From Promethearchaeia archaeon (GTDB taxonomy: Archaea > Asgardarchaeota > Lokiarchaeia > Sigyniarchaeales > SOKP01), in assembly GCA_046497275.1 (NCBI GenBank), contig JAWOFX010000001.1, positions 305 to 32,304 on the forward strand: a stretch of DNA of 32,000 bases, given 5' to 3'. Shown here piece after piece: positions 3 to 27,090 of the stretch. How positions within the stretch are numbered: position 1 is the first letter of the stretch; each line of letters opens with the position of its first letter. A model generated the notes under the pieces. The model ran no database searches, had not been told where the DNA came from, and saw only the letters and a program-made list of their open reading frames with translations. The translations under genes and the position numbers were made by a program.

Positions 3-2264
3 CATTTTTTTACCAACTTCAGAAACTATAACCAAATCTTTTTTAATGATCCATCTGAAATAAGAGATGATTTAATTGGTTTAAATAATGGAGAGAATAA
101 TTCTTTAAATTCCTCTTCTGATTTTGAAATGTGTGAATTTGCCAATATTAGTTCTAGTAAAACTAATATCAGTTCTATCAATATAGATATCCCCTCCTCA
201 GGATGGAATCTTACAAGTATAGAATTTAATTTTACTGATATTAGTTTAAAACAAGAGACTATCACTTTAGCCTCTGAAAATGATGTTTCAGATGTTTGGG
301 TTCTACAAAATAACAATATCGAACGGTTATCAATGCAAATAAAAGTAACGGAACAAGTCAAGATTAATTCGATTGAAATTTATGGATTTTCGTCTCAAAT
401 TCCTGAAGATGAAGAAGTTTATGTAGGTATAACCGATTGGAATTCAGCTGATAATGTTCCAGATTTAAATACTATTTATGGAGATCCCATTCCAATAAAT
501 ATTTCAAACATACCAACATGGTATGTCCAAAAGTTTTCAAATCCAATTAATTTAGATCCAGGCGATTATGCGTTCGTATTAGATGGATATGGGCGAATTG
601 GAAATGACATCCAATATTATTGGTTTATGAATGAAAGCAATCCGAATCCATTATATATGGGTTATTATTATAGATTTTTAGGCTGGCGCTGGGGGAAAAA
701 CCAGTATGATGTTTTTTGCCATAAGATTAACCAATGGGTTAATCGCTCCTATAAACCATCTGAAATTAATATGACAGCATCTATTAATGAAATTCCTTAT
801 GAAATTTTAGAAGGGTTAAATGTAGGAACGGGATATTTGAATATTTATAATCTAAATTATATCATTCCAGATAATATTCTACATATTACAATTTCTACGA
901 ATGGATCTATTCAGATAAACTTCAACCTGAATTATACAATCAGTATTAACAATCTCAGGAATGTAGATTTATTACTCCATATTAAGGAGGGTAAAGAAAA
1001 TGACTGGAAAATTTTCCCTAATTTAGAGCGTTATCCTTTTTATTATTCAGTTAGTTTTCAAATTCCAACTAATTGGTTTAATTTGTCACTGTATAAAGAT
1101 GATATAGAAATTTCATCAGATCCAGAAATAATTTATCAAAATTATACTCTTACCATTAAAAATGATACTATAACAGCTAATAGCGATTGGTTAATTGCTG
1201 CCCAAAGCGATCGACAAAACTTCGCAATAAATATTCAAAAAACGAGTTATAATCCTGCAGATGAGATAGAAATTGAGATAGGGAGTTCTTTTTTAAATGG
1301 AGAATTTAATTTCATCCTACTTGATAGCATTGGTCAAGAAAAATCTAGCCAAACTAAATCTGTGAATGCTCCAACAGAGATTTTTTCTTATATTGTTCGT
1401 TCTAATGATAGAAGGGGAACTTGGAATGCTTTGATCTTTTGGAATAACCAAACTGATGCTGGAGTTGAAAATGTTTCCTTTATAGTGGAAATTCCCTTTG
1501 TTATAACTCCATTTTTGATATTTTTAATCTCTATTATAAGTATTGGCGCTGTAAGTTCTGTTTATGGGACTTATAAAATTATCAAAAGGAGGAAACGCAT
1601 TCAACAGAAGAGAAAACAAAAAATTATAGATAAATGTATGGATATTGTCAATTTGAATCATATTCTGGTTACTGATAAAAAAAGCTCCTTAACCCTCTTT
1701 GATCAAAAATACGTGGAAAAAGCACTTGAAGCAAACTTAATTTCTGGATTTTTACAAGCCATTCGTTCTTTTGGAATAGAATTAACGGACACTAAGGAAA
1801 GTTCTCAAATAATAAAGCTCGAATATAAAAATTTAAAGGTTATCATGGATGAATACAGTAATTTCAGAATAATAGCTATTATGAAAGAAATACCCTCAAA
1901 CGAATTTTTAAATTCTATAAAAGATCTTTCCTATGAACTTGAAGAGAAATTTGGTAAATACTTGGAAAATTTTAATGGAGATATAAGACCGTTCAAATAT
2001 ATCGACAGATTAATAATAAAGCATCTCAATGGAGAGTTATTACACCCGCTTAAACTCGAGAAAGTTGATGAATCCAAATTTAATCAAGAAGAAAGAACTT
2101 TGATATCAAAAATTTCAAAGCTTAGAAAAATAAAAGAATCAGAATATGTATTTTTTCGAGATTTAGTTCATGAGAGAGCTTGTGACCCAGAAGAAATCAT
2201 TATTATAAATAAATTAATTGAACAGAGAATTTTAAAACCGATTTTAAATCTAAATGAAGATTAA
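3..2264 (+). CDS. Single-pass membrane glycoprotein with large extracellular region and cytoplasmic longin/roadblock-like domain plus small C-terminal helical domain (5'-truncated by window edge)
   Basis: The frame is open from position 3 (HFFTNFRNYNQIFF...) into the ATG at 129, so the true start lies left of the window. One hydrophobic helix (PFLIFLISIISIGAVSSVYGTY, about 1509-1574) is followed by KRRKR. About 15 N-x-S/T sequons occur before the helix and none after. The cytoplasmic part HILVTDKKSSLTLF...LISGFLQAIRSFGIEL...EY resembles the longin-like domain common in Lokiarchaeal proteins. Confidence 0.8.
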   Translation, partial: HFFTNFRNYNQIFFNDPSEIRDDLIGLNNGENNSLNSSSDFEMCEFANISSSKTNISSINIDIPSSGWNLTSIEFNFTDISLKQETITLASENDVSDVWVLQNNNIERLSMQIKVTEQVKINSIEIYGFSSQIPEDEEVYVGITDWNSADNVPDLNTIYGDPIPINISNIPTWYVQKFSNPINLDPGDYAFVLDGYGRIGNDIQYYWFMNESNPNPLYMGYYYRFLGWRWGKNQYDVFCHKINQWVNRSYKPSEINMTASINEIPYEILEGLNVGTGYLNIYNLNYIIPDNILHITISTNGSIQINFNLNYTISINNLRNVDLLLHIKEGKENDWKIFPNLERYPFYYSVSFQIPTNWFNLSLYKDDIEISSDPEIIYQNYTLTIKNDTITANSDWLIAAQSDRQNFAINIQKTSYNPADEIEIEIGSSFLNGEFNFILLDSIGQEKSSQTKSVNAPTEIFSYIVRSNDRRGTWNALIFWNNQTDAGVENVSFIVEIPFVITPFLIFLISIISIGAVSSVYGTYKIIKRRKRIQQKRKQKIIDKCMDIVNLNHILVTDKKSSLTLFDQKYVEKALEANLISGFLQAIRSFGIELTDTKESSQIIKLEYKNLKVIMDEYSNFRIIAIMKEIPSNEFLNSIKDLSYELEEKFGKYLENFNGDIRPFKYIDRLIIKHLNGELLHPLKLEKVDESKFNQEERTLISKISKLRKIKESEYVFFRDLVHERACDPEEIIIINKLIEQRILKPILNLNED

Positions 2265-4110: not shown

Positions 4111-5349
4111 ATGACATCTACTAATAGAAGATTAGTTGAAGCATTAATTAAAAAAGGAGTTAATATTCCTAATCCATCTACTATTGAGATCGGAGAAGAA
4201 GTTGATTTAAATTTTATCTCAGCTGAAGGAGTTATTATACACTCAGGTTGTAAAATATTTGGAGAAAAGACTCTTATTATGTCAAATGTGGAATTAGGAG
4301 CTAGATCTCCGGTCACTATTAATAATTGTCAATTAGGTAGGAATGTTGAGTTAAAAGGGGGTTACTTTGAAGAATCTACTTTCTTAGATTCTGCGAATAT
4401 GGGAGATGGTGCAGAAGTTAGAAAAGGGTGTTTATTAGAAGAAAAAACAAATGGAGCTCATACTGTTGGGCTTAAACAAACAATACTCTTTCCATTTGTT
4501 ACATTAGGCAGTATAATTAATTTTTGTGATATTTTAATGGCTGGGGGAACAAGTAGGAAAAATCATAGTGAGGTGGGGAGTTCCTATATTCATTTTAATT
4601 ATACTCCTAATCAAGATAAAGCAACTGCCTCTTTGATCGGTGATGTTGCTCACGGAGTTATGTTTAATAAGCCTCCTATCTTTTTAGGTGGTCAAGGTGG
4701 TTTAGTAGGACCAGCTATTATTGGATATAATACAGTTATTGCGGCAGGTGTCATTTATCGAGATGATTGTCCCCAAGGGAATAAGCTACTAAGGAATAAG
4801 GAAGAAATCAAGGAAGATTTAGAATTCTATCCTGGTATATATTGGAATATAAAAAGAAAAGTACTCAATTGTGTTCAATATATAGCAAACATAATAGCCC
4901 TTAAACAATGGTATCTTTTTGTGCGTCAGAGATTTTTTCAAGGAAATAAGTTGGATAATAAGCTTTTTGAAGGAGCCATGGAAAAAATAGAGATTATTTT
5001 GGAGGAGAGATTAAAAAGATTTATCGATCTAGCTAATAATATGGAGCAATCAATTAAATTATATGAATCGATTATGGGTGATCAAGCTTCAAAAACACTC
5101 TTAACTCAAAAAAAAGAACTTTTTGAAAATATTGAAGCTATAGAAAATATTTTTAATGAATACATTTCATATAGGGGAGATATTGAAAAGAGAGATGAGT
5201 TTTTAAAAAGGATTGATACAAATCTAGATTACATCAAAGCAATAAAAACATTAGATAAAGATTCTTCAGAAATTGGAATTAAATGGCTCTTGAGCATTAT
5301 TAATGAGATAAGAGAAAAAGTAATTCAGAATTTACCTTCTTTTGTATAA
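4111..5349 (+). CDS. GlmU-like left-handed beta-helix protein (probable glucosamine-1-phosphate N-acetyltransferase) lacking the nucleotidyltransferase domain
   Basis: Hexapeptide-like repeats in the N-terminal half (STIEIGEEV, GVIIHSGCKI, GRNVELKG, GDGAEVRKG). Segments GSIINFCD, SEVGSSYIHFNY and IFLGGQGGLVGPAIIGYNTVIAAG parallel the GlmU acetyltransferase domain. No N-terminal GxGxR pyrophosphorylase motif. Helical C-terminal extension. Adjacent to glmS. Confidence 0.7.
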   Translation: MTSTNRRLVEALIKKGVNIPNPSTIEIGEEVDLNFISAEGVIIHSGCKIFGEKTLIMSNVELGARSPVTINNCQLGRNVELKGGYFEESTFLDSANMGDGAEVRKGCLLEEKTNGAHTVGLKQTILFPFVTLGSIINFCDILMAGGTSRKNHSEVGSSYIHFNYTPNQDKATASLIGDVAHGVMFNKPPIFLGGQGGLVGPAIIGYNTVIAAGVIYRDDCPQGNKLLRNKEEIKEDLEFYPGIYWNIKRKVLNCVQYIANIIALKQWYLFVRQRFFQGNKLDNKLFEGAMEKIEIILEERLKRFIDLANNMEQSIKLYESIMGDQASKTLLTQKKELFENIEAIENIFNEYISYRGDIEKRDEFLKRIDTNLDYIKAIKTLDKDSSEIGIKWLLSIINEIREKVIQNLPSFV

Positions 5350-10182: not shown

Positions 10183-11655
10183 ATGATTTTCCAAGGTTTA
10201 TACAATATATTAGATCTATACTTAAATGAAAGTGGAATATTTTATCAAAATGTAGACCAATATATTAAAAAAAATATAGATGATATTCCATTCGATATGA
10301 AGGATATAGATGAATCTTTAGAATTTATTCTAGAAAATTTAAAAGATCAACTAATTGAATTGGGTTTTTCTAAGGTAGAAATAGAAAATAAATTCTCTGA
10401 CCCATTTCTTACTTTCGAGGAAATAGAGAAAAATAAGATAAGATCTGCCTTTGATTTATATAAAGAGAAAATAGCTCCGATATTTTATGAAATTTTGTTG
10501 GAAAAAATTGTTGATTATCTTGTTAATTCTGAAGTTGCTCCACTTATGTTGAATCTAAAATCCCAGGGTTTATTACCTCTTGAATTTATAATGGAACTTA
10601 GAAAATTAAAAACAAAATTGGAGAATAATCCTGAAAAGATGGAAAATCTAAAAAAATATGTTAATATTAAAAATAAGCTCATACAAAAATTTAGGCAGAA
10701 TAAGTGTGAAATTGAAAGGTTAGAAGATATCAGAGACCCAGGAGATAAGCTTCAATTAGTTTATATGATTTATAGAATTATTAATTTTTTTCATTTAGAG
10801 AGATTATTTGATTTTTCGCATATAGAAATTTACTTAGAAAATAATATAGATGAATGGCTTACTTCAGTTCCATTAATTACTTTAAAAAACCCAGATATTT
10901 ACTTCTGCGGTCTTTATTTAGCAACTAATTTGGGAGTTGAAATTGATAAAGAAGAAGTAAAACGCTTCTTATTAGAGTTATACAATGAGTTTATCGATGA
11001 ATTTGACGCACCAATTATAGAAGCGACTGATCAGATTTATTATTTTTACAAATCCATTAAAATGATTAATTTGGATCTTTACGAAGAAGAAATTGAAAAT
11101 TTAATGAGAGCTGATTCTTCTTTTTTCGAAAAAGATTACTTAAGAAGTTTAGAAACTTCACAACTCGTAGTTATTTTAAAATTATATAAATTATTAAGAT
11201 TTTATGAAAAAATTGACAATTTAAAGATTAAAGCGATTTTAGATGAGATAAATAAACGAATTACACCAGAGGGAATTCTTCAATATAGAGATGGCATAAT
11301 ATCATCTGAGGCATCCTATTATGTATTATTTAATGCATATATGAGAGATGAATTAGAATACCTTAAGAATTTTAAAATTTTAAATAGTGTTGTTGAGAGA
11401 ATTTATAGGAATCTAGAAATTATCGATTTTTGTAGGAATACTAATTTTGATTTAGTGAGTGAAATTTTTTATTCTTGTGAAAGCTTAAAACTCTTTAATT
11501 GTATTGAAACAAAAGAAATGATATTCCATTTAGCACGGTATCTTTTTCCTGAGGGGATTCTTGAGAATGGATTGTTTAAGAGGGGGATTGACAGAAAAGC
11601 AGCAAAGTTTCGTCATCTAAAAGTAAATAAGTTGACAGGGCAGACTATCTACTAA
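10183..11655 (+). CDS. Hypothetical all-helical protein; C-terminal half possibly a degenerate prenyltransferase/alpha-alpha toroid repeat
   Basis: 490-aa ORF with typical host composition. Spaced segments (IYFCGLYLA, TDQIYYFYKS, QYRDGIISSEASYYVL, SEIFYSCESL) weakly resemble prenyltransferase repeats. Confidence 0.6.
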   Translation: MIFQGLYNILDLYLNESGIFYQNVDQYIKKNIDDIPFDMKDIDESLEFILENLKDQLIELGFSKVEIENKFSDPFLTFEEIEKNKIRSAFDLYKEKIAPIFYEILLEKIVDYLVNSEVAPLMLNLKSQGLLPLEFIMELRKLKTKLENNPEKMENLKKYVNIKNKLIQKFRQNKCEIERLEDIRDPGDKLQLVYMIYRIINFFHLERLFDFSHIEIYLENNIDEWLTSVPLITLKNPDIYFCGLYLATNLGVEIDKEEVKRFLLELYNEFIDEFDAPIIEATDQIYYFYKSIKMINLDLYEEEIENLMRADSSFFEKDYLRSLETSQLVVILKLYKLLRFYEKIDNLKIKAILDEINKRITPEGILQYRDGIISSEASYYVLFNAYMRDELEYLKNFKILNSVVERIYRNLEIIDFCRNTNFDLVSEIFYSCESLKLFNCIETKEMIFHLARYLFPEGILENGLFKRGIDRKAAKFRHLKVNKLTGQTIY

Positions 11656-11768: not shown

Positions 11769-13259
11769 GTGAAGTTTGAAGATTTTGAACTAATTTATAA
11801 AGAGAATCGGGCTGAGATCAAAAATAAAGAAGAGATTCTAAAAGATTTAAAAGAAAAGATTGGAAAGAAAAATGTTTCAACTAATGAAATAGATCGAATG
11901 GCATACACCAGAGATTCATCGCTTATTTCATTAAATTGGACCATAGAAGGAAAAATTGCGGGACTACCTGATATTATTACATGGCCAGAAAATTCGAATC
12001 AAATTAGTGAAATATTAAAAATAGCAAATAGAGAAAAAATTCCTGTAGTTCCTTTTGCTGAAGGTTCTGGGGTTGTTGGAGGAGCGATTCCCATTAGAGG
12101 TGGAATAATAATCGATATGAAAAGATTAAATAAAATTATTGAAATAAATGATAAAAATCTATCTGTAACTGTTCAAACGGGAATGAATGGTATGAATTTA
12201 GAGAGATATTTAAACTCTAAGGGATATACGGGAGGACATATCCCCCAGTCATTATATACATCATCAGTAGGGGGGTGGATCGCTCATAAAGCAGCAGGAC
12301 AATTCTCTACTAAATATGGTAAAATCGAGGATATTATTTTAGGCATGCAAGTTATTTTATCAACTGGAGAGATTATAAATTTTGATCCTATAGCGAGATC
12401 CGCAACGGGTCCTCAACTTGATAAATATTTTATTGGTAGTGAAGGTACTTTAGGAATCGTTACGCAGGCGACCCTTAAAATTTGGCCCTATCCAGAAAAG
12501 AGAACCCTTATTTCATATGTTTTTCCAAAAATAGAGGATGCTTTAGACGCAGTCCGTTTAACTTTACGAGAGAATGTTTATCCTGCTGTAGTGAGAATTT
12601 ATGACGCTGATGAAACAGCAAGACATTTTAAACATATAGAAAAAGCCACAGATAAAGTGATGACCGTTTTTGTTTGCGAAGGTAATAAAGAATTAGTTGA
12701 TTTAGAAGAAAAAATTACACGGGAAAAATGTAACGAACGATCTGGTGTGGATTGTGGAGAAGAACCAGTAGAACATTGGTTTGAAACACGATTCAAAGTA
12801 ACTGAAACTTCTATGTTTCCACCATATAAAATCGTTGCTGATACCATTGAAGTCTCAATAATGTGGGATAAAGCTTCTGAATTATATCATTCTGTAATTG
12901 GATCCACAAGTAAGGTGGAAGGTAATTTATTAATTACTGCTCATGTCTCTCATTTTTATCCAAATGGAGCTGGTTTTTACTTTACTTTTGGAGGTGTTCC
13001 CGGTAAAGGAAAATCTGAATTTGATTTCTATAAAGAATGTTGGGATGCTACAATTAAAGCAGTTTTGGATTCTGGTGGTTCTATTGCACATCATCATGGA
13101 ATAGGAGTCAATCGTTCTCACTGGATGGAAAGGGAATGGGATAATGGGTATGAAGTAATGAAAGAGTTTAAGAAAGTTCTTGATCCAAATAACATTCTTA
13201 ATCCAGGAAAAATATATGAAAAAACATGGAAAAAATCAACAGATGGAGGTGGTGATTAA
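11769..13259 (+). CDS. FAD-binding oxidoreductase (VAO/PCMH family), alkyl-dihydroxyacetone-phosphate synthase-like
   Basis: PFAEGSGVVGG FAD loop, GHIPQSLYTSSVGGWIAHKAAGQFSTKYGKIED, IGSEGTLGIVT, PAVVRIYD, HVSHFYPNGAGFYFTF, SIAHHHGIG, LDPNNILNPGK. These match the AGPS/YgcU subfamily rather than GlcD. Confidence 0.85.
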   Translation: MKFEDFELIYKENRAEIKNKEEILKDLKEKIGKKNVSTNEIDRMAYTRDSSLISLNWTIEGKIAGLPDIITWPENSNQISEILKIANREKIPVVPFAEGSGVVGGAIPIRGGIIIDMKRLNKIIEINDKNLSVTVQTGMNGMNLERYLNSKGYTGGHIPQSLYTSSVGGWIAHKAAGQFSTKYGKIEDIILGMQVILSTGEIINFDPIARSATGPQLDKYFIGSEGTLGIVTQATLKIWPYPEKRTLISYVFPKIEDALDAVRLTLRENVYPAVVRIYDADETARHFKHIEKATDKVMTVFVCEGNKELVDLEEKITREKCNERSGVDCGEEPVEHWFETRFKVTETSMFPPYKIVADTIEVSIMWDKASELYHSVIGSTSKVEGNLLITAHVSHFYPNGAGFYFTFGGVPGKGKSEFDFYKECWDATIKAVLDSGGSIAHHHGIGVNRSHWMEREWDNGYEVMKEFKKVLDPNNILNPGKIYEKTWKKSTDGGGD

Positions 13260-13261
13260 AA

Positions 13262-14617
13262 ATGGGGATATTTGATACTTTAAAAAAATATAAATGGATG
13301 CTTCCACTAATTCAAGACGCTGAAAGAAATGTGAGACGTAAGTTATTAAAAAATGTAAGAAAGAAAAAAGAAAATTTTTATCCCGAAGGCGAGTTTCATG
13401 CTGATATTAAGAATCTGATAAATTGCATGCTTTGCCCTAATATGTGTCGTTTTGATTGTGGAGTATTACAAGCTTCGGAAAATGAAGCACTATCTCCGGC
13501 TTATAAATCAAGAATAGGTTACTTTCTGACAACAAATAAAATAGATCCCTCTGATCCAAAAAATAAAGAATTTGTTGATTTGATGTACAAATGTTCAAAT
13601 GAAGAAAATTGTAAAATATGGTGTCCATTTGAATTTTCCGTTGTATCTCTGCTTGAGACGGTAAGAGATGATCTTAATGATAAAGGATTAATGCCCGAAT
13701 ATTGTAAAAAACAAATCAAAAAACTCCAAGATACAGGCACTATTGAGGATTATAATATTTTTAAAACCTATAAGGAAAAAGGTATCGAAAATATTGAAAC
13801 GGAAGGAGATGATGATGTTTTTTATTATATTGGGTGCCAAACTATGAAGTTTCCGGAAGTTGTAAAGGCGAACATAGAGTTTCTAAAGAAAGCAGGGATA
13901 AAATTCTCAACAAATTTAGATCAGAGAGTGTGCTGTGGGGCTCCAGCTCTTAACATTAGAGATTTTGAAACTAGTAAAAATCTTGCAGAAAATAATCTTG
14001 ACCTCATTAAAAAAAGCGGTGCAGAAATTGTTGTTTCTGACTGTCCCGGATGCGTGAATTCACTCAAAAATCGATATCAAAAATTTGGCATTGGAATTGA
14101 AATTGAAAAACAAAAACAAGGAGAGAATGAAGAAGAAGCTGAGGAGAAAACTGAAAAAGTGATTAAAAGTTATTTTGAGGAGGGACCCAAGATAATTCAT
14201 ATCGTAGAATATATAAAAATATTAGTTGAAGAGGGCAAGTTAACGTTTGAAGAACTTCCAGAGAAATATCAGAAAGTCACAATTCACGATCCTTGTCTTT
14301 TAGCGAGAAATTTAAATGATATCACGTCCATTAGAACAATTTTGGAACATATTCCTAACTTAGAAATTGTGGAACCAATTTATACTAAGGATTACACACA
14401 CTGCTGTGGATGGAGTGGTACGGTTCATTGGGCAGATAAAGAGATTTCTATAAAAGAAGCGGAGAATAGAATAGACGAGCTAAAAGAGACTGGTGCAAAA
14501 ATTATAGTTACCGCTTGTCCAACTTGTGAACTCGGCTTGGCTTATGGCATTAAGGATGAGGATAAAAAAGAGATTGAAATAAAAGATCTATCCGAATTGA
14601 TTAGCAAAGCAATTTAA
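13262..14617 (+). CDS. Fe-S protein with ferredoxin-like region and two CCG domains (GlpC/GlcF/HdrD-like)
   Basis: CMLCPNMCRFDC and CSNEENCKIWCP motifs. CCG domain 1: YYIGC...CCGAP...SDCPGC. CCG domain 2: HDPC...CCGWSG...TACPTC. Starts 2 nt after the flavoprotein stop, with GGAGGTGGTG upstream. Confidence 0.9.
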   Translation: MGIFDTLKKYKWMLPLIQDAERNVRRKLLKNVRKKKENFYPEGEFHADIKNLINCMLCPNMCRFDCGVLQASENEALSPAYKSRIGYFLTTNKIDPSDPKNKEFVDLMYKCSNEENCKIWCPFEFSVVSLLETVRDDLNDKGLMPEYCKKQIKKLQDTGTIEDYNIFKTYKEKGIENIETEGDDDVFYYIGCQTMKFPEVVKANIEFLKKAGIKFSTNLDQRVCCGAPALNIRDFETSKNLAENNLDLIKKSGAEIVVSDCPGCVNSLKNRYQKFGIGIEIEKQKQGENEEEAEEKTEKVIKSYFEEGPKIIHIVEYIKILVEEGKLTFEELPEKYQKVTIHDPCLLARNLNDITSIRTILEHIPNLEIVEPIYTKDYTHCCGWSGTVHWADKEISIKEAENRIDELKETGAKIIVTACPTCELGLAYGIKDEDKKEIEIKDLSELISKAI

Positions 14618-14624
14618 TTCTTAA

Positions 14625-14647
14625 TTTTTTTATAATACTTCCTTTTT
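14625..14647 (+). terminator. T-tract terminator candidate after the Fe-S gene
   Basis: T7 at 14625-14631 and T5 at 14643-14647 just after the stop codon at 14617. Confidence 0.45.
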
Positions 14648-14800
14648 AATTTAATTTTATTAGAAAATAATCCAAATTAATTCAACTCTTTCCAAATTGG
14701 TTAATTTTATAAATTCTTAAACCATTTTTTTGAATGATAAATTTTATTATAATATATAACTTCTTTCAAGTATTATACAATTCAATTAATTTAAGAATGC

Positions 14801-16354
14801 TTGGCGAAAATGGAACAAAAAATATTAATATTAGATATTGGAACTACCAATATAAAAGCTCTCTTATTTAATAAAAAAGGAGAGATTGTTGGTGAAGCTC
14901 GTCGTCGTCCAGATTATATTATGAAAGAAAAAGGGCAAGTAGAGCAAGATCCCAATCAAATTTGGCAGTATAGTAAAGAAGCTATCGAAGAAGTCATCGA
15001 TAAGAATAATTTGAGCGCCTCAGATATAAAGTGTATGGGGATTACCACTCAAAGAGCATCTTTTTGTATATGGGACAGAAGAAATGGAAAATTATATTCT
15101 AATATAATTACTTGGCAAGATAAAAGAGCTGCAAAATATGCTCAAGAAATGTCAAATAGTTTCTTTTTTAAATTCTTGAGAGGGTTTGCAAAAGTTGCAC
15201 ATATGTTGACTAAAAGTACAAAAATGCTTACAGCTTCAATGTTACAATTCAATTCAGATTACGCATCTATAAGAACTTCTTATTTTCTAAAAAATAATCC
15301 CAAATTGAATGAATTAATTCAAGATCCAAAAACTACTATTAGTTGGGGTACAATTGATACGTGGGTACTATGGAATCTTACAGAAGGAAGAGTTTTTGCA
15401 ACTGATTACTCCAACTGCTCCTCAACAGGTATGTTGGATCCTTTTACATTAGATTGGAATTCTATTGTTATCGATAAATTAAAAATACCTCTATACATTT
15501 TACCAGAAATAAAAGATACTAATGGTGATTTTGGAGAGACTAAACTCTTTGGCAGTGGCGAGATCCCTATTCGAAGTGTAGTGGCAGATCAACAAGCATC
15601 TCTATTCGGTCAATGTTGCTTTGATTATGGAGATATGAAAGTCACTAATGGGACGGGTTCGTTTGTAGATTTAAATACTGGAGATGAACCTTTCGCATCT
15701 AAAAGGAAATTATATCCCTTAGTGGCATGGAGATTAAATGGAGAGGTTTCTTATATCTTGGAAGGGCTAAGTCATAACTCAGGAAACATAATAGATTGGA
15801 TAAAAGAGGAACTCGAGCTATATGATGATCCGAGCGAAACTGAAGAGATGGCAAAAAGCGTTGAATCAACTGAAGGAGTATTTTTCCTACCAACATTCAC
15901 TAGTGGACTTTCATTCCCCTACTGGGATCCTTCGGCAAGAGGGAACATTTTTGGAATAAGCTTAAAAACTAAGAAAGAACATATAATAAGAGCTGTTTTA
16001 AATGGTATTTGCTTTAGAATAAAAGATTTTGTTGAAGGTATTATTGCAGATACAGGTATATCAGTCGATAGAATAAAAGCTGATGGAGGTGTGTCCCAAA
16101 ATACCTATGTTCTCCAATTCCTAGCAGATATACTTGATATGGAAGTAGAACATTCTCAGAATCCAGAGACAACAGCTCTTGGAGCTGCTTTTATCGCAGG
16201 ATTAGCAACTAACTTCTGGAATTCTAGAGAAGAGTTAAGGGAAATCAGAAAAATCGATAAAATTTATGAACCACGAATGAGTAAGGAGAGAAGAGAAAAA
16301 CTTTATAACAATTGGAAAGATATCATTCGGCGTTCCCTCAATTATAATTTCTAA
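14801..16354 (+). CDS. glpK: FGGY-family glycerol kinase, GK5-like
   Basis: LDIGTTN, VEQDP, GITTQR, TWQDKR, GTIDTW, TDYSNCSSTG, ADQQASLFG, KVTNGTGSF, ADGG, ETTALGAA. Carries the GK5-type insertion after WQDxR. Start is either TTG 14801 or ATG 14810. Confidence 0.9.
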   Translation: MAKMEQKILILDIGTTNIKALLFNKKGEIVGEARRRPDYIMKEKGQVEQDPNQIWQYSKEAIEEVIDKNNLSASDIKCMGITTQRASFCIWDRRNGKLYSNIITWQDKRAAKYAQEMSNSFFFKFLRGFAKVAHMLTKSTKMLTASMLQFNSDYASIRTSYFLKNNPKLNELIQDPKTTISWGTIDTWVLWNLTEGRVFATDYSNCSSTGMLDPFTLDWNSIVIDKLKIPLYILPEIKDTNGDFGETKLFGSGEIPIRSVVADQQASLFGQCCFDYGDMKVTNGTGSFVDLNTGDEPFASKRKLYPLVAWRLNGEVSYILEGLSHNSGNIIDWIKEELELYDDPSETEEMAKSVESTEGVFFLPTFTSGLSFPYWDPSARGNIFGISLKTKKEHIIRAVLNGICFRIKDFVEGIIADTGISVDRIKADGGVSQNTYVLQFLADILDMEVEHSQNPETTALGAAFIAGLATNFWNSREELREIRKIDKIYEPRMSKERREKLYNNWKDIIRRSLNYNF

Positions 16355-16537
16355 AAATCACTTTTTCCTAATTTTTTTATTATTTAATAATAACACTTCC
16401 AAAATTTTGGATTTTAATATTATTGAATGGTTAGTTTTTTATTGGTATTAAAAGGTTAATTAAAAAATCACAAAATATTTTTTAAATACCATATTTCAAG
16501 AATTATAAGATAATATACATGCTGCAATTCAAAAACG

Positions 16538-17365
16538 ATGCCTTACTTCAAAAATCAAGAGGGTTACAATCTATATTATGAAGAATTCAACCCTCAATCG
16601 AAACGGTGTACAGTAATATTACTCCACGGATTTGCCTCATCTGTATCTTTCTTTAAAGAACAAATAAAAATATTAAAGGAATATTATCGTATCATTTGTT
16701 TTGATGCTTTAGGGCATGGGCGCAGCGATCATACCAAAGAGATTAATTTATCTGGCAATATACGACATCAAATTATTCGAGATCTTGAAGATTTATTAGA
16801 ATATCTGGGGATTAAAGGTCCTTATGGAATTATAGGACATTCATTGGTAGGGGGAATGATTGCTCAACTGATATGTCAAAAACATATGGATGATGTAAAG
16901 TTTCTTATTCTCCTCAATTCAGGTTACATTAACACAGATAATGTTATTCGAAATATTTTCTACAATCTCCTTCCTTATATGGTGAGAATGAATTTTTTAG
17001 ATGTTGTAAATAATTCAATAGGAAACATTTTAGATAAAACAACACCTTATATAGTTCAAGCATTATCAAACTCCTTGTATAATGTGAAAATGTCTAAAGA
17101 AAAATTATTAATGCATATAGAAGATCAGATTTTTGGAATGATAAATGAGATTAAGGAATATGATCCCTCATATATCAAATGTCCGACCCTTATTATCGGA
17201 GGTAGGTTAGATAATTTTGCACCAGAACAAATGTCAGAGAGTTTAGCGGAAAGAATTCCAAATTCGAGATTAGAAATAATTGATATGGCTGGGCATTTTG
17301 GACCTGCCCAGAGAGAAGAAACTTATAATAAAATAATTTGCGATTTTATTCGATCCATTAAGTAA
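16538..17365 (+). CDS. Alpha/beta hydrolase (esterase/lipase-like)
   Basis: LLHGF oxyanion motif, FDALGHGRS, nucleophile GHSLVGG, acid GRLDNFAP, AGHF His. Confidence 0.88.
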   Translation: MPYFKNQEGYNLYYEEFNPQSKRCTVILLHGFASSVSFFKEQIKILKEYYRIICFDALGHGRSDHTKEINLSGNIRHQIIRDLEDLLEYLGIKGPYGIIGHSLVGGMIAQLICQKHMDDVKFLILLNSGYINTDNVIRNIFYNLLPYMVRMNFLDVVNNSIGNILDKTTPYIVQALSNSLYNVKMSKEKLLMHIEDQIFGMINEIKEYDPSYIKCPTLIIGGRLDNFAPEQMSESLAERIPNSRLEIIDMAGHFGPAQREETYNKIICDFIRSIK

Positions 17366-25287: not shown

Positions 25288-27090
25288 ATGGAAAAAATTG
25301 TGAGGATAAATTTAACAACAAAGGACATTAACACAGAAGAGATTTCAGAGGAGAAAGAAGGAAAATATATCGGAGGTTCGGGAGTTGCGGCTTCGCTATT
25401 TGTGAAGGAGGTTCCAGCAGATATTAATGCTTTTGATGAAGAGAATCTATTAATATTTTCAGTAGGTCCTTTTTGTGGAACTGCAATACCATTCTGTGGA
25501 AGACATTTTGTAATGGCAAAATCTCCCCTGACTAATATATTAGGTGAATCTTCAGCTGGGGGATTTTTTGGAAGAGAATTAAGAGCGGCAGGATATAATC
25601 ACATAATATTTGAGGGCAAAAGTGAAAACCCCGTATACCTATATATTGATGATGGAAATGTAGAAATTAAGGATGCCTCAAGCTTATGGGGAAAGGGCAT
25701 TCATCAAACCGAATCTCTAATCAAGAAAGAACTTAATGAAGAACAATTGAAAATAGCTTTAATCGGTCTTGCGGGAGAAAACTTGGTACGATATGCGTCT
25801 ATAATTAGTGAGGGTGATCATGCGGCGGGAAGATGCGGTTTAGGAGCAGTGATGGGCAGTAAGAATTTAAAGGCAATAGCAATTAAGGGGAATAACAAAA
25901 TTGAGACTGCTAATAGGGAGGGTGTTTTAAATGCAGCTAAAGAATTGCAGCAACTAACAAAAGCAAGTCCATTAGCCAATATCATGAAAGATTCTGGGAC
26001 CGTTATTCATATGGATAATTACACGAGATTTGGAGATGTCCCAATTAAGAATTATTCAGAGAGTAGGTGGAAAGGCACAAAAAATATTGGATATTATGCT
26101 ATGCAAGAAAGAGGAGAAATAAAAACAACAGCTTGTTTCAACTGCCCTGTAGGCTGTAGAGGTGAACTACAATATGAGGGAGAATGGGTAGCATGGCCTG
26201 AATATGAAACATGTGCGATGTTAGGAGCAAATTTATTGGTTGACGATTTAGAAACACTCATAAAATGGAATGAGTTAATAAATGATCTAGGAATTGATGC
26301 GATTTCGTTAGGAGCGAATTTGGGTTGTTTTCTCGAAGCTGCTGAAAAGGGATTGCTAGATGTTGATTTAGATGTTTTAGGTTTTGAAAAAGATCCTGAA
26401 AATGAAAATCACTATCAAATTTGGGGAGCAACAAAACCAATAGAAAAACTCATAAAAATGACAGCAAATAAAGAAGGAATTGGGAAAGACTTAGCTGAAG
26501 GAGTAGAGAGGTTTATAAAAATCAAAAATCTTCCTGAAGAATTTAATACTACTGGTAAAGGATTAGAAGTTCCCGCACATGAACCGAGATCAAATAATCT
26601 AACCGCACTAGATTATGCAACAACTAGTAGAGGTGCATATCATTGTTATGAACCAATGCATTTATCATTTCAAATGAATTTAAAAGAAGAGATTGGATTA
26701 ACAGAAAAAATAGATCGATTTAGTGAGGACGAGGAAGTTATAAAGGCTGTGATAAAATTACAAAATTCCAGTGAAGCCTATTCTGCCAGTGGAGGATGCA
26801 TTTTTGGATTCTGGTTTATTCATAAAATTACACCATGGGTAGAAGGTCTTAATGCGATAACAGGCCGAGACTATTCTGTTGATTCTTGGGTAAAAGCAGG
26901 TGAAGATATATTCAATTTAAAGCGTCAATATAATTTGGAATGTGGAATATCCAGTGATGATGATACTGTAGGAAAAAGATTTTTTATACCAATTAAAAAA
27001 GGCGGCACTAAAGGTTACACGCCACCACTTCATGAGTTAGTTCCAAAATACTATGAAAAGCGGGGCTGGAATGAAAAAGGAGTTCCTTAA
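25288..27090 (+). CDS. aor: Aldehyde:ferredoxin oxidoreductase family (tungsten/pterin) enzyme
   Basis: KSPLT, ESSAGG, GRCGLGAVMGSKNLKAI, CFNCPVGC, PEYET, DLGIDAIS, KGLEVPAHEPR, GGCIF. Confidence 0.93.
   Translation: MEKIVRINLTTKDINTEEISEEKEGKYIGGSGVAASLFVKEVPADINAFDEENLLIFSVGPFCGTAIPFCGRHFVMAKSPLTNILGESSAGGFFGRELRAAGYNHIIFEGKSENPVYLYIDDGNVEIKDASSLWGKGIHQTESLIKKELNEEQLKIALIGLAGENLVRYASIISEGDHAAGRCGLGAVMGSKNLKAIAIKGNNKIETANREGVLNAAKELQQLTKASPLANIMKDSGTVIHMDNYTRFGDVPIKNYSESRWKGTKNIGYYAMQERGEIKTTACFNCPVGCRGELQYEGEWVAWPEYETCAMLGANLLVDDLETLIKWNELINDLGIDAISLGANLGCFLEAAEKGLLDVDLDVLGFEKDPENENHYQIWGATKPIEKLIKMTANKEGIGKDLAEGVERFIKIKNLPEEFNTTGKGLEVPAHEPRSNNLTALDYATTSRGAYHCYEPMHLSFQMNLKEEIGLTEKIDRFSEDEEVIKAVIKLQNSSEAYSASGGCIFGFWFIHKITPWVEGLNAITGRDYSVDSWVKAGEDIFNLKRQYNLECGISSDDDTVGKRFFIPIKKGGTKGYTPPLHELVPKYYEKRGWNEKGVP

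Follow-up and report, generated by a model that had tools for sequence, protein, structure and literature searches.

Several described systems carry relatives of the flavoprotein considered here. The eukaryotic alkyl-dihydroxyacetone phosphate (alkyl-DHAP) synthase, known as AGPS or ADPS, is redox-neutral; its lipid channel is controlled by an extra, ADPS-only domain with a gate-keeping helix, and mutagenesis of the Dictyostelium enzyme defined R447 as a third catalytic residue (PMC3509576). In Escherichia coli, the AGPS-like gene ygcU is accompanied by genes of the electron-transfer flavoprotein (ETF) type, an anti-terminator, transporters and the FGGY kinase gene ygcE. In Pseudomonas aeruginosa, the GliR-activated operon PA3026 (AGPS-like FAD oxidoreductase)–PA3025 (GlpD)–PA3024 (FGGY)–PA3023 (YegS-type kinase) is co-regulated with a phospholipase C by GliR (PMC8151288); on the basis of its published annotation as AGPS-like, PA3026 would fall into the YgcU-like clade. 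A survey of archaeal glycerol metabolism mentions neither this flavoprotein nor the Asgard genomes (PMC11962113). Here we analysed a set of four genes, headed by such a flavoprotein gene, in a 32,000-nucleotide stretch of DNA (the window) from a Promethearchaeia archaeon (GCA_046497275.1, contig JAWOFX010000001.1, positions 305 to 32,304). The genome (G000, Lokiarchaeia/Promethearchaeota) is 98.9% complete, and the window lies on its contig C93.

Our analysis confirmed that the feature is real and conserved, and that its biochemistry is undescribed. The flavoprotein and the Fe-S protein encoded next to it are most likely a dehydrogenase and not an ether-lipid synthase, and the set appears, by its gene neighbourhoods, to be part of a widespread glycerol-phosphate/dihydroxyacetone phosphate (DHAP) gene module of bacteria and archaea.

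Results

The four genes follow one another on the plus strand, as the original prediction had it. The first two are separated by only 2 nt, and the ribosome-binding site placed within the upstream gene can be read directly from the sequence. The features are as follows.

11769-13259, plus strand: gene for the AGPS-like flavoprotein of the VAO family (YgcU/PA3026 clade), the putative catalytic subunit; 496 aa, GTG start, FAD_binding_4 and FAD-oxidase_C domains.
13245-13251, plus strand: Shine-Dalgarno-like GGAGGTG for the CCG gene, read from the sequence, within the 3' end of the flavoprotein gene and 10 nt before the ATG at 13262.
13262-14617, plus strand: gene for the putative Fe-S (2xCCG) subunit; 451 aa, two Pfam CCG domains and a weak Fer4_8 match.
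14801/14810-16354, plus strand: gene for the GK5/GlpK-like FGGY kinase; 517/514 aa, FGGY_N and FGGY_C domains, the ATG at 14810 being the likelier start.
16538-17365, plus strand: gene for the alpha/beta hydrolase; 275 aa, Abhydrolase_1 domain, doubtful member of the module.

The flavoprotein resembles AGPS

The best solved sequence relatives of the flavoprotein are the Dictyostelium and guinea-pig AGPS (2uuu/4bby; 5e-60 and 2e-58), while D-lactate dehydrogenase (D-LDH) reaches 9e-41. The catalytic Arg, Tyr and HHH loop of AGPS (R419, Y578) align with Arg276, Tyr404 and His441-443 of the window protein, a mapping made through the wild-type AGPS chain and the mutant chains 4bc7 (R419H) and 4bca (Y578F); the roles of these residues are taken from a review (PMC3509576) and from the PDB mutant entries. 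Among 30 diverse clade members, R276, Y404, H442 and H443 are invariant, and the HHH set as a whole is invariant or nearly so. Mouse LDHD has H398, H405 and E442 (the Glu before HGIG), which we take to be its active-site His/His/Glu set; an H405A mutant of this protein is present in the PDB. This set is not kept in the window flavoprotein, which has H395, Y404 and H442 at these positions, the Tyr and the His being those of AGPS. The best NCBIfam match is GlcD TIGR00387, at 221 bits against a cut-off of 568.

The predicted structure (predicted local distance difference test, pLDDT, 91.8) has AGPS as its top Foldseek match, with a TM score of 0.84-0.87. Alignment with VIA-align gave Z 40.0 against AGPS (rmsd 2.1-2.2 Å, 465-470 residues aligned, 28% identity) and Z 40.6 against mouse LDHD (rmsd 2.6 Å, 443 residues aligned). 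Since the fold ties the two enzymes, it leaves the choice undecided, and it is the sequence together with the active-site residues that decides. On these grounds the flavoprotein can be considered AGPS-like rather than GlcD/LDHD-like, and the original naming is upheld. It differs from AGPS at the N-terminus: residue 1 of the model aligns at positions 149-155 of the guinea-pig enzyme and at position 81 of the Dictyostelium enzyme, so that the N-terminal part of AGPS has no counterpart. We infer that it is the ADPS-only domain, bearer of the gate-keeping helix, that is missing. The residue equivalent to Dictyostelium R447 is Ser or Thr, in a region that is variable across the clade and in a loop where the alignment is of low confidence. 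Orthologs of the flavoprotein were found in 109 of 201 Asgard genomes.

A conserved flavoprotein/Fe-S pair

The second gene encodes a protein with a PF02754 (CCG) match of 112 bits over two stretches, whereas Fer4_8 reaches only 21.2 bits, below its cut-off of 27. Its N-terminal Cys motifs are atypical (C-x2-C-x3-C-x3-C and C-x6-C-x3-CP). The Cys residues invariant in 27 orthologs are 55/58/62, 111/117/121, 192, 224/225, 261/264, 345, 381/382 and 419/422. A reading of the sequence of this subunit revealed no evident membrane helix.

In 47 of the 50 Asgard loci, which were drawn from 14 families, the CCG gene comes directly after the flavoprotein gene in the same orientation, the two being spaced by -40 to +26 nt. 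A natural fusion, P0127 (894 aa), unites the FAD domains, Fer4_8 and two CCG domains in a single chain. The predicted complex of the two window proteins gave an ipSAE of 0.93, compared with 0.00 for the best control, a mark that 58 of 80 solved complexes attain, as do 2 of 110 mismatched pairs; these counts apply only roughly here, as our own alignments went into the prediction. At least 93% of the contacts recur between runs, and the pLDDT of the partner is 89. In the model of the complex, the interface on the Fe-S partner spans residues 12-123, which bear both atypical Cys motifs. Gene order, fusion and complex prediction thus all support the conserved redox pair that had been claimed, and the flavoprotein and the CCG protein would be the two subunits of one soluble enzyme. 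An obligate Fe-S partner implies net electron transfer, in contrast to true AGPS (PMC3509576). In one metagenomic contig (L086:3811-4423), an RHH/PIN toxin-antitoxin pair sits between the flavoprotein and CCG genes.

Linkage to glycerol-phosphate and DHAP genes

The pattern of the HHH loop occurs in at least 599 stretches of species-representative genomes, 596 of which encode relatives, and 1859 sequence clusters match the clade at E <= 1e-30. For the best 80 of the 599 or more stretches, in named genomes, we counted neighbours encoded on the same strand within 6 kb. GlpA/D-like genes accompany the flavoprotein gene in 57 of these loci and FGGY kinase genes in 50; 39 loci have both, and 68 have at least one of the two. 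The glycerol-phosphate/DHAP theme of the original prediction is therefore borne out. A CCG partner is encoded in 24 of the 80, chiefly in archaea and in bacteria that are anaerobes. Among the hosts are Promethearchaeota, Thermoplasmatota, Thermococcus, Bacillota, Chloroflexota, Binatia, Acidimicrobiia, Myxococcota, Brucella and Xanthobacter.

The association can be very close. In another Asgard family, the genes of an FGGY-GlpA-GlpB-GlpC-FAD-CCG operon (L059) overlap or abut, and tblastn located the same type of order in nine further Asgard loci. Outside Asgard, we found FAD-CCG-GlpA-GlpB-GlpC (L085), an FAD+CCG fusion with a GlpA-like gene after it (L083), DeoR-GlpA-like-PyrRedox-DUF1667-FAD-FeS-FGGY (L087) and FAD-CCG-DAGK_cat (L084). 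In the set of 201 Asgard genomes, families in which the flavoprotein was found mostly have GlpA/D too, and families without the one mostly lack the other. There are exceptions in both directions: f16, f24 and f27 have GlpA/D only, and f22 is the one family in which the pair and a kinase occur with GlpA/D nearly undetected.

The original prediction offered, as its catabolic option, that the pair replaces GlpA/GlpD, and noted that the window has no glpA or glpD gene. The latter is correct; however, contig C108 of the window genome carries a GlpD/GlpO-like gene that stands alone. GpsA was not found in this genome. Given that a GlpA/GlpD-type gene stands alongside the flavoprotein gene in 57 of the 80 named loci, within the same operon, and in many Asgard loci, and that the window genome has its own GlpD-like gene, the pair is unlikely to be a stand-in for GlpA/D, and this option is not supported in the form proposed. 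Instead, the pair appears to work with the canonical sn-glycerol-3-phosphate (G3P) dehydrogenases. All of the operon-linked GlpA/D-like proteins tested score below the NCBI equivalog cut-offs, which may reflect a divergent paralogous set or phylogenetic distance alone.

The linked kinase

In the family to which the window belongs, an FGGY kinase gene directly follows the CCG gene in 13 of the 14 loci that extend past the CCG gene; the one remaining locus (L024) encodes a GK5-like kinase of 62% identity at a distance of 5 kb. The slot is filled in two ways, by GK5/GlpK-like kinases in seven loci (63-88% identity) and by XylB/AI-2-kinase-like proteins in six (22-26%), and the genomes with a linked XylB-like kinase have no GK5-like ortholog elsewhere. 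This is a non-orthologous displacement between two unrelated FGGY subfamilies in different genera. Of 20 loci from other Asgard families, 14 have an FGGY kinase gene no more than 7 kb away. The CCG-kinase junction measures only 8-50 nt in relatives L019, L020, L022, L023, L027, L028 and L029. A third kinase family is coupled in P0194, in which a PfkB kinase is fused to the flavoprotein. With two subfamilies occupying one slot and a third family fused, the claimed coupling of the kinase gains support, and the kinase appears to be functionally coupled to the flavoprotein/CCG pair. In the closest relative (L013, genes 86-88% identical), an arylsulfatase-like gene on the opposite strand (L013:10915-12408, minus strand) lies between the CCG and kinase genes. 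A PfkB kinase-AGPS-like fusion is encoded at L082:2556-5033; its operon is DeoR-regulated and also encodes a DeoC-type aldolase, a cupin-type GPI, a ROK protein and an ABC sugar transporter, surroundings which suggest that some members of the clade act on sugar phosphates.

The window kinase is the sole GlpK-like kinase of its genome. In the PDB it matches GlpK 3g25 (6e-114), and it remains under the GlpK cut-offs (NF000756, 474.6 versus 498; TIGR01311, 461.1 versus 590.35). The designation GK5-like holds as a lead only, since it is feature-based: the three atlas clusters nearest to the kinase are named 'Glycerol kinase 5' (0.98), without an alignment to a eukaryotic GK5. We take the glycerol site of GlpK to comprise R83, E84, W103, Y135, D245 and F270 (E. 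coli numbering). The window kinase keeps the R, W, Y, D and F residues, and has Ala at the position of E84. Among the linked GK5-like kinases examined, this position is Ala, except for a Gly in L032, and both types of linked FGGY kinase (L013-L059) have Ala or Gly there, whereas the unlinked XylB-like kinase of the genome (L049:6765-8309) retains the Glu. The GK5-like kinases also share a Phe-rich insertion of ~30 aa, at about residues 113-150.

The parallel drawn with E. coli stands as well. YgcU shares 31% identity with the window flavoprotein along its whole length (2e-70), and the Arg, Tyr and HHH signatures are retained, which makes it a member of the clade. The FGGY gene ygcE is ~2.5 kb from ygcU, and its product lacks the Glu after the conserved Arg, with Cys at the position of GlpK Glu84.

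The hydrolase and other features of the window

The fourth gene encodes an alpha/beta hydrolase with a GHS102LVGG nucleophile elbow and candidate Asp and His residues, as read from the sequence. Its best matches are generic esterases, and its best full-length PDB match is the monoacylglycerol lipase ABHD6 (3e-12), in a very broad family; no NCBIfam model passes. The designation 'lipase-like' is thus weak. The gene follows the kinase gene only in the family of the window, where MazG-PurC-PurS-PurQ downstream is equally syntenic, and it is absent from the 20 loci of other Asgard families and from 77 of the 80 named loci. We consider it probably a bystander, with low confidence either way, and its proposed membership of the module is not sustained.

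Three further features are close to the set.

10183-11655, plus strand: gene for a 490-aa protein without a Pfam family, possibly of a prenyltransferase-like alpha-alpha toroid fold (atlas features, structure), directly upstream of the flavoprotein gene.
14618-14809, no strand: AT-rich gap ahead of the kinase gene; 192 nt, 16.7% GC, several T-runs of 5-7.
16355-16537, no strand: AT-rich gap ahead of the hydrolase gene; 183 nt, 18% GC, four T-runs of 5-7.

The two gaps agree with those described initially, as AT-rich, T-tract-bearing and about 180 nt long. The gap at 14618-14809 is probably a terminator/promoter region, and the kinase here may be on a separate transcript. The 490-aa upstream protein matches no Pfam or NCBIfam model; its atlas features (0.91) and a TM score of about 0.5 against Prenyltrans families would indicate a prenyltransferase/terpene-cyclase toroid. 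Its gene is a conserved neighbour, upstream of the flavoprotein gene in nine loci of the family of the window. Elsewhere in the window, two open reading frames, at 129-2264 (plus strand, 711 aa) and 4111-5349 (plus strand, 412 aa), have no Pfam family, and an aldehyde:ferredoxin oxidoreductase gene lies at 25288-27090.

Discussion

The subunit pairing, the linkage to kinase and GlpA/D genes, the conserved catalytic residues and the missing AGPS N-terminal part are the observations from which any account of this module has to start. We propose that the pair is a two-subunit flavin/Fe-S dehydrogenase whose substrate is a C3 phosphate of the DHAP type, and that it works alongside a dedicated FGGY kinase and a GlpD/GlpABC-type enzyme, a reading that we favour with even confidence. 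In this scheme, the kinase would phosphorylate glycerol or a glycerol-like polyol, and a GlpD-type enzyme would then yield a 2-keto, DHAP-type phosphate. The AGPS-like subunit, with Arg276, Tyr404 and His441-443, would enolise this product at C1 and engage N5 of the flavin. The flavin intermediate would be resolved by a net two-electron transfer, in place of the exchange of acyl for alkyl, and the CCG subunit would pass the electrons on, via its Fe-S clusters, to an acceptor. Substrate, reaction direction and acceptor are matters of inference in this scheme.

A number of points weigh against this proposal. Oxidising or transforming DHAP itself has no clear purpose. The window holds no GlpA/GlpD gene and none is adjacent to the pair, and the kinase gene in the window is set apart by the 192-nt AT-rich gap with its T-runs. 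In family f22, the pair and a GK5-like kinase occur with GlpA/D in only two of seven genomes, and there below the cut-off, a pattern that fits a direct glycerol-phosphate dehydrogenase better. The fold alone cannot separate AGPS from D-LDH, and the score of the predicted complex is possibly due in part to its likeness to solved flavoprotein/Fe-S complexes. Deletion of PA3026-24 in P. aeruginosa produced no phenotype on glycerol (PMC8151288), and our literature search found no biochemical characterisation of any member of the clade.

The strongest rival is that the pair is itself a glycerol-phosphate dehydrogenase giving DHAP, either from G3P, independently of GlpA/GlpD, or, more attractively, from sn-glycerol-1-phosphate (G1P); we regard it as unlikely. 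The kinase gene adjoins the pair, the distribution in f22 points the same way, and GlcD/GlcF and GlpA/GlpC are precedents for dehydrogenases made of a flavoprotein and a CCG protein. With G1P as the substrate, the presence of two dehydrogenases in one operon would be explained, one for each enantiomer. By established lipid stereochemistry, the action of phospholipase C on phosphatidylglycerol would release G1P. The P. aeruginosa operon, which includes a YegS-type lipid kinase, is co-regulated with a phospholipase C (PMC8151288). However, a second G3P dehydrogenase would be redundant with the adjacent GlpA/D of 57 of the 80 loci and with the GlpD-like gene of the genome itself, there is no direct evidence for G1P, and the invariant AGPS Tyr, HHH and Arg indicate the carbanion chemistry of a ketone rather than hydride abstraction from a secondary alcohol (PMC3509576). 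The same active site bears on whether the pair is an ordinary D-lactate, glycolate or 2-hydroxyacid dehydrogenase of the GlcD/GlcF type, for instance one that clears the D-lactate formed from DHAP via methylglyoxal. The removal of D-lactate in a glycerol operon is metabolically plausible, the architecture of a flavoprotein with a CCG protein is that of GlcDEF and LutABC-type systems, GlcD is the best NCBIfam match, at 221 versus 568 bits, and the fold is tied with that of mouse LDHD. Nevertheless, the sequence is nearer to AGPS (5e-60) than to LDHD (9e-41), and LDHD His405 and the Glu before HGIG are replaced by Tyr404 and His442, clade-wide and without exception, and we judge this explanation improbable.

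Two other explanations take the likeness to AGPS as a sign of lipid metabolism. The module could degrade 1-substituted glycerols, such as alkylglycerols and monoacylglycerols, with the altered kinase phosphorylating them and a GlpD-type enzyme forming alkyl- or acyl-DHAP before the AGPS half-reaction, reversed or oxidative, splits off the C1 substituent; if true, this would amount to an anaerobic cleavage of ether lipids. Glu84 of GlpK contacts the distal hydroxyls of glycerol, and all of the linked kinases lack it, the GK5-like ones gaining the Phe-rich, amphipathic insertion besides. The AGPS catalytic residues are intact, and a neighbour of the DAGK_cat lipid-kinase family is encoded in L084, L099, L103 and L136, as well as by PA3023, in the operon that is co-regulated with phospholipase C. 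A further point in its favour is that the GlpA/D-like, kinase and GlpD-like genes all fall below the NCBI equivalog cut-offs, but such scores perhaps reflect mere phylogenetic distance. Moreover, the N-terminal part of AGPS, taken to hold its lipid gate-keeping helix, is absent (PMC3509576), the residue aligned, with low confidence, to Dictyostelium R447 is not conserved, and the window has no lipid-transfer or beta-oxidation gene. We hold such a degradative role to be no more probable than a 2-hydroxyacid dehydrogenase.

Far less credible is a genuine alkyl-DHAP synthase making archaeal ether lipids, with all four genes, including the hydrolase gene, as one lipid-remodelling operon, which corresponds to the biosynthetic option of the original prediction. 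AGPS is indeed the top match in both sequence and Foldseek comparisons, and the catalytic Arg, Tyr and HHH are present. The genome also has, unlinked to the set, a tandem PlsC-type acyltransferase gene (G000:C71:51597-52811, plus strand), a single 577-aa open frame with two PlsC/GNPAT-type domains; such a glycerolipid acyltransferase is of the bacterial type, here in an archaeon. However, the obligate Fe-S partner and the natural fusions imply net redox chemistry, the protein lacks the N-terminal part of AGPS, the hydrolase accompanies the pair as a conserved gene in one family only, and the neighbours (GlpABC, DeoR and sugar ABC transporters) are catabolic. No convincing fatty-acyl reductase was found in the genome; the profile PF07993 gave only weak matches and is non-specific, as it matches all 14 control genomes. 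In addition, a published survey detected no plasmalogen pathway in Archaea, and the eukaryotic AGPS has been traced to Myxobacteria (10.1101/2025.10.10.681575).

In Lokiarchaeia, the pair bears on the origin of their G1P and on the lipid divide. Of the 201 Asgard genomes, 137 encode an EgsA-type protein (PF13685, E <= 1e-20), whereas none of the 40 genomes of the family of the window and none of the three genomes of f2 has such a match. The five Fe-ADH paralogs of the window genome match generic alcohol dehydrogenases only, and the genome has a geranylgeranylglyceryl phosphate (GGGP) synthase gene (C111:42978-43637). A previous study proposed a divergent AraM-like candidate for the G1P dehydrogenase, in which the DHAP-binding residues are not conserved (Manoharan et al. 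2019, PMC6737245). The pair could be envisaged as a flavin/Fe-S G1P:DHAP oxidoreductase, the stereochemical counterpart of GlpD/GlpABC, which in Lokiarchaeia would also supply the G1P backbone of the archaeal lipids, for which a source is missing there. A strict complementarity of the pair and EgsA across Asgard was tested and rejected: the two occur together in many families, and neither was found in genus g3, the genomes of which are 98-100% complete. We consider this role quite doubtful for that reason.

The wider significance of the clade does not depend on this role. Its members are, in many databases' automatic annotation, widely named 'alkyldihydroxyacetonephosphate synthase', which we take to be KEGG K00803. 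The AGPS label has been taken as a sign that ether lipids are made, including in a LUCA (last universal common ancestor) reconstruction (PMC11383801). If the prokaryotic clade is a redox enzyme of glycerol-phosphate/DHAP metabolism, paired with Fe-S or ETF partners, ether-lipid inferences from this label need care. As the clade keeps the unusual catalytic set with which AGPS uses its covalent flavin intermediate, a central C3 phosphate is likely to undergo a kind of flavoenzyme chemistry that is new.

Comparison with known systems

The proposed dehydrogenase shares features with several known systems and coincides with none of them. With AGPS/ADPS (EC 2.5.1.26), the window flavoprotein has in common the Arg, Tyr and HHH set, the Dictyostelium counterparts of the Arg and the Tyr being R352 and Y508. 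AGPS has no electron-transfer partner and works in a pathway with fatty-acyl reductase (FAR) and GNPAT, whereas the window flavoprotein has an Fe-S/CCG partner and the genes next to members of the clade are GlpA/D and kinase genes.

The architecture of a VAO flavoprotein with a GlcF/GlpC/HdrD-like 2xCCG protein is common to GlcDEF, D-LDH with a CCG protein, the YdiJ fusion and LutABC-type systems, among which fused forms occur too. LDHD differs in having His and Glu at the active-site positions where the window flavoprotein is of the AGPS type (Tyr404, His442), and the latter has glycerol-phosphate gene neighbours. Catabolism by GlpK with GlpD or GlpABC follows the same logic of a kinase and then a flavin dehydrogenase, and elsewhere the module is found inside GlpABC operons. 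The AGPS-like pair is not part of the canonical GlpK/GlpD pathway, and would be an extra enzyme in the module.

The E. coli ygc cluster (ygcNOPQRSUW-yqcE-ygcE) employs ETF (YgcQR) and ETF-QO-like/ferredoxin-like (YgcNO) electron partners in place of the CCG protein of the window, and the identity between YgcE and the window kinase is just ~20%. The P. aeruginosa GliR operon has the set of flavoprotein, GlpD and FGGY kinase in common with 39-68 of the 80 named genomes and with Asgard loci. It lacks a CCG partner and has its GlpD gene adjacent, whereas the window encodes a CCG partner and the GlpD-like gene of its genome lies on another contig.

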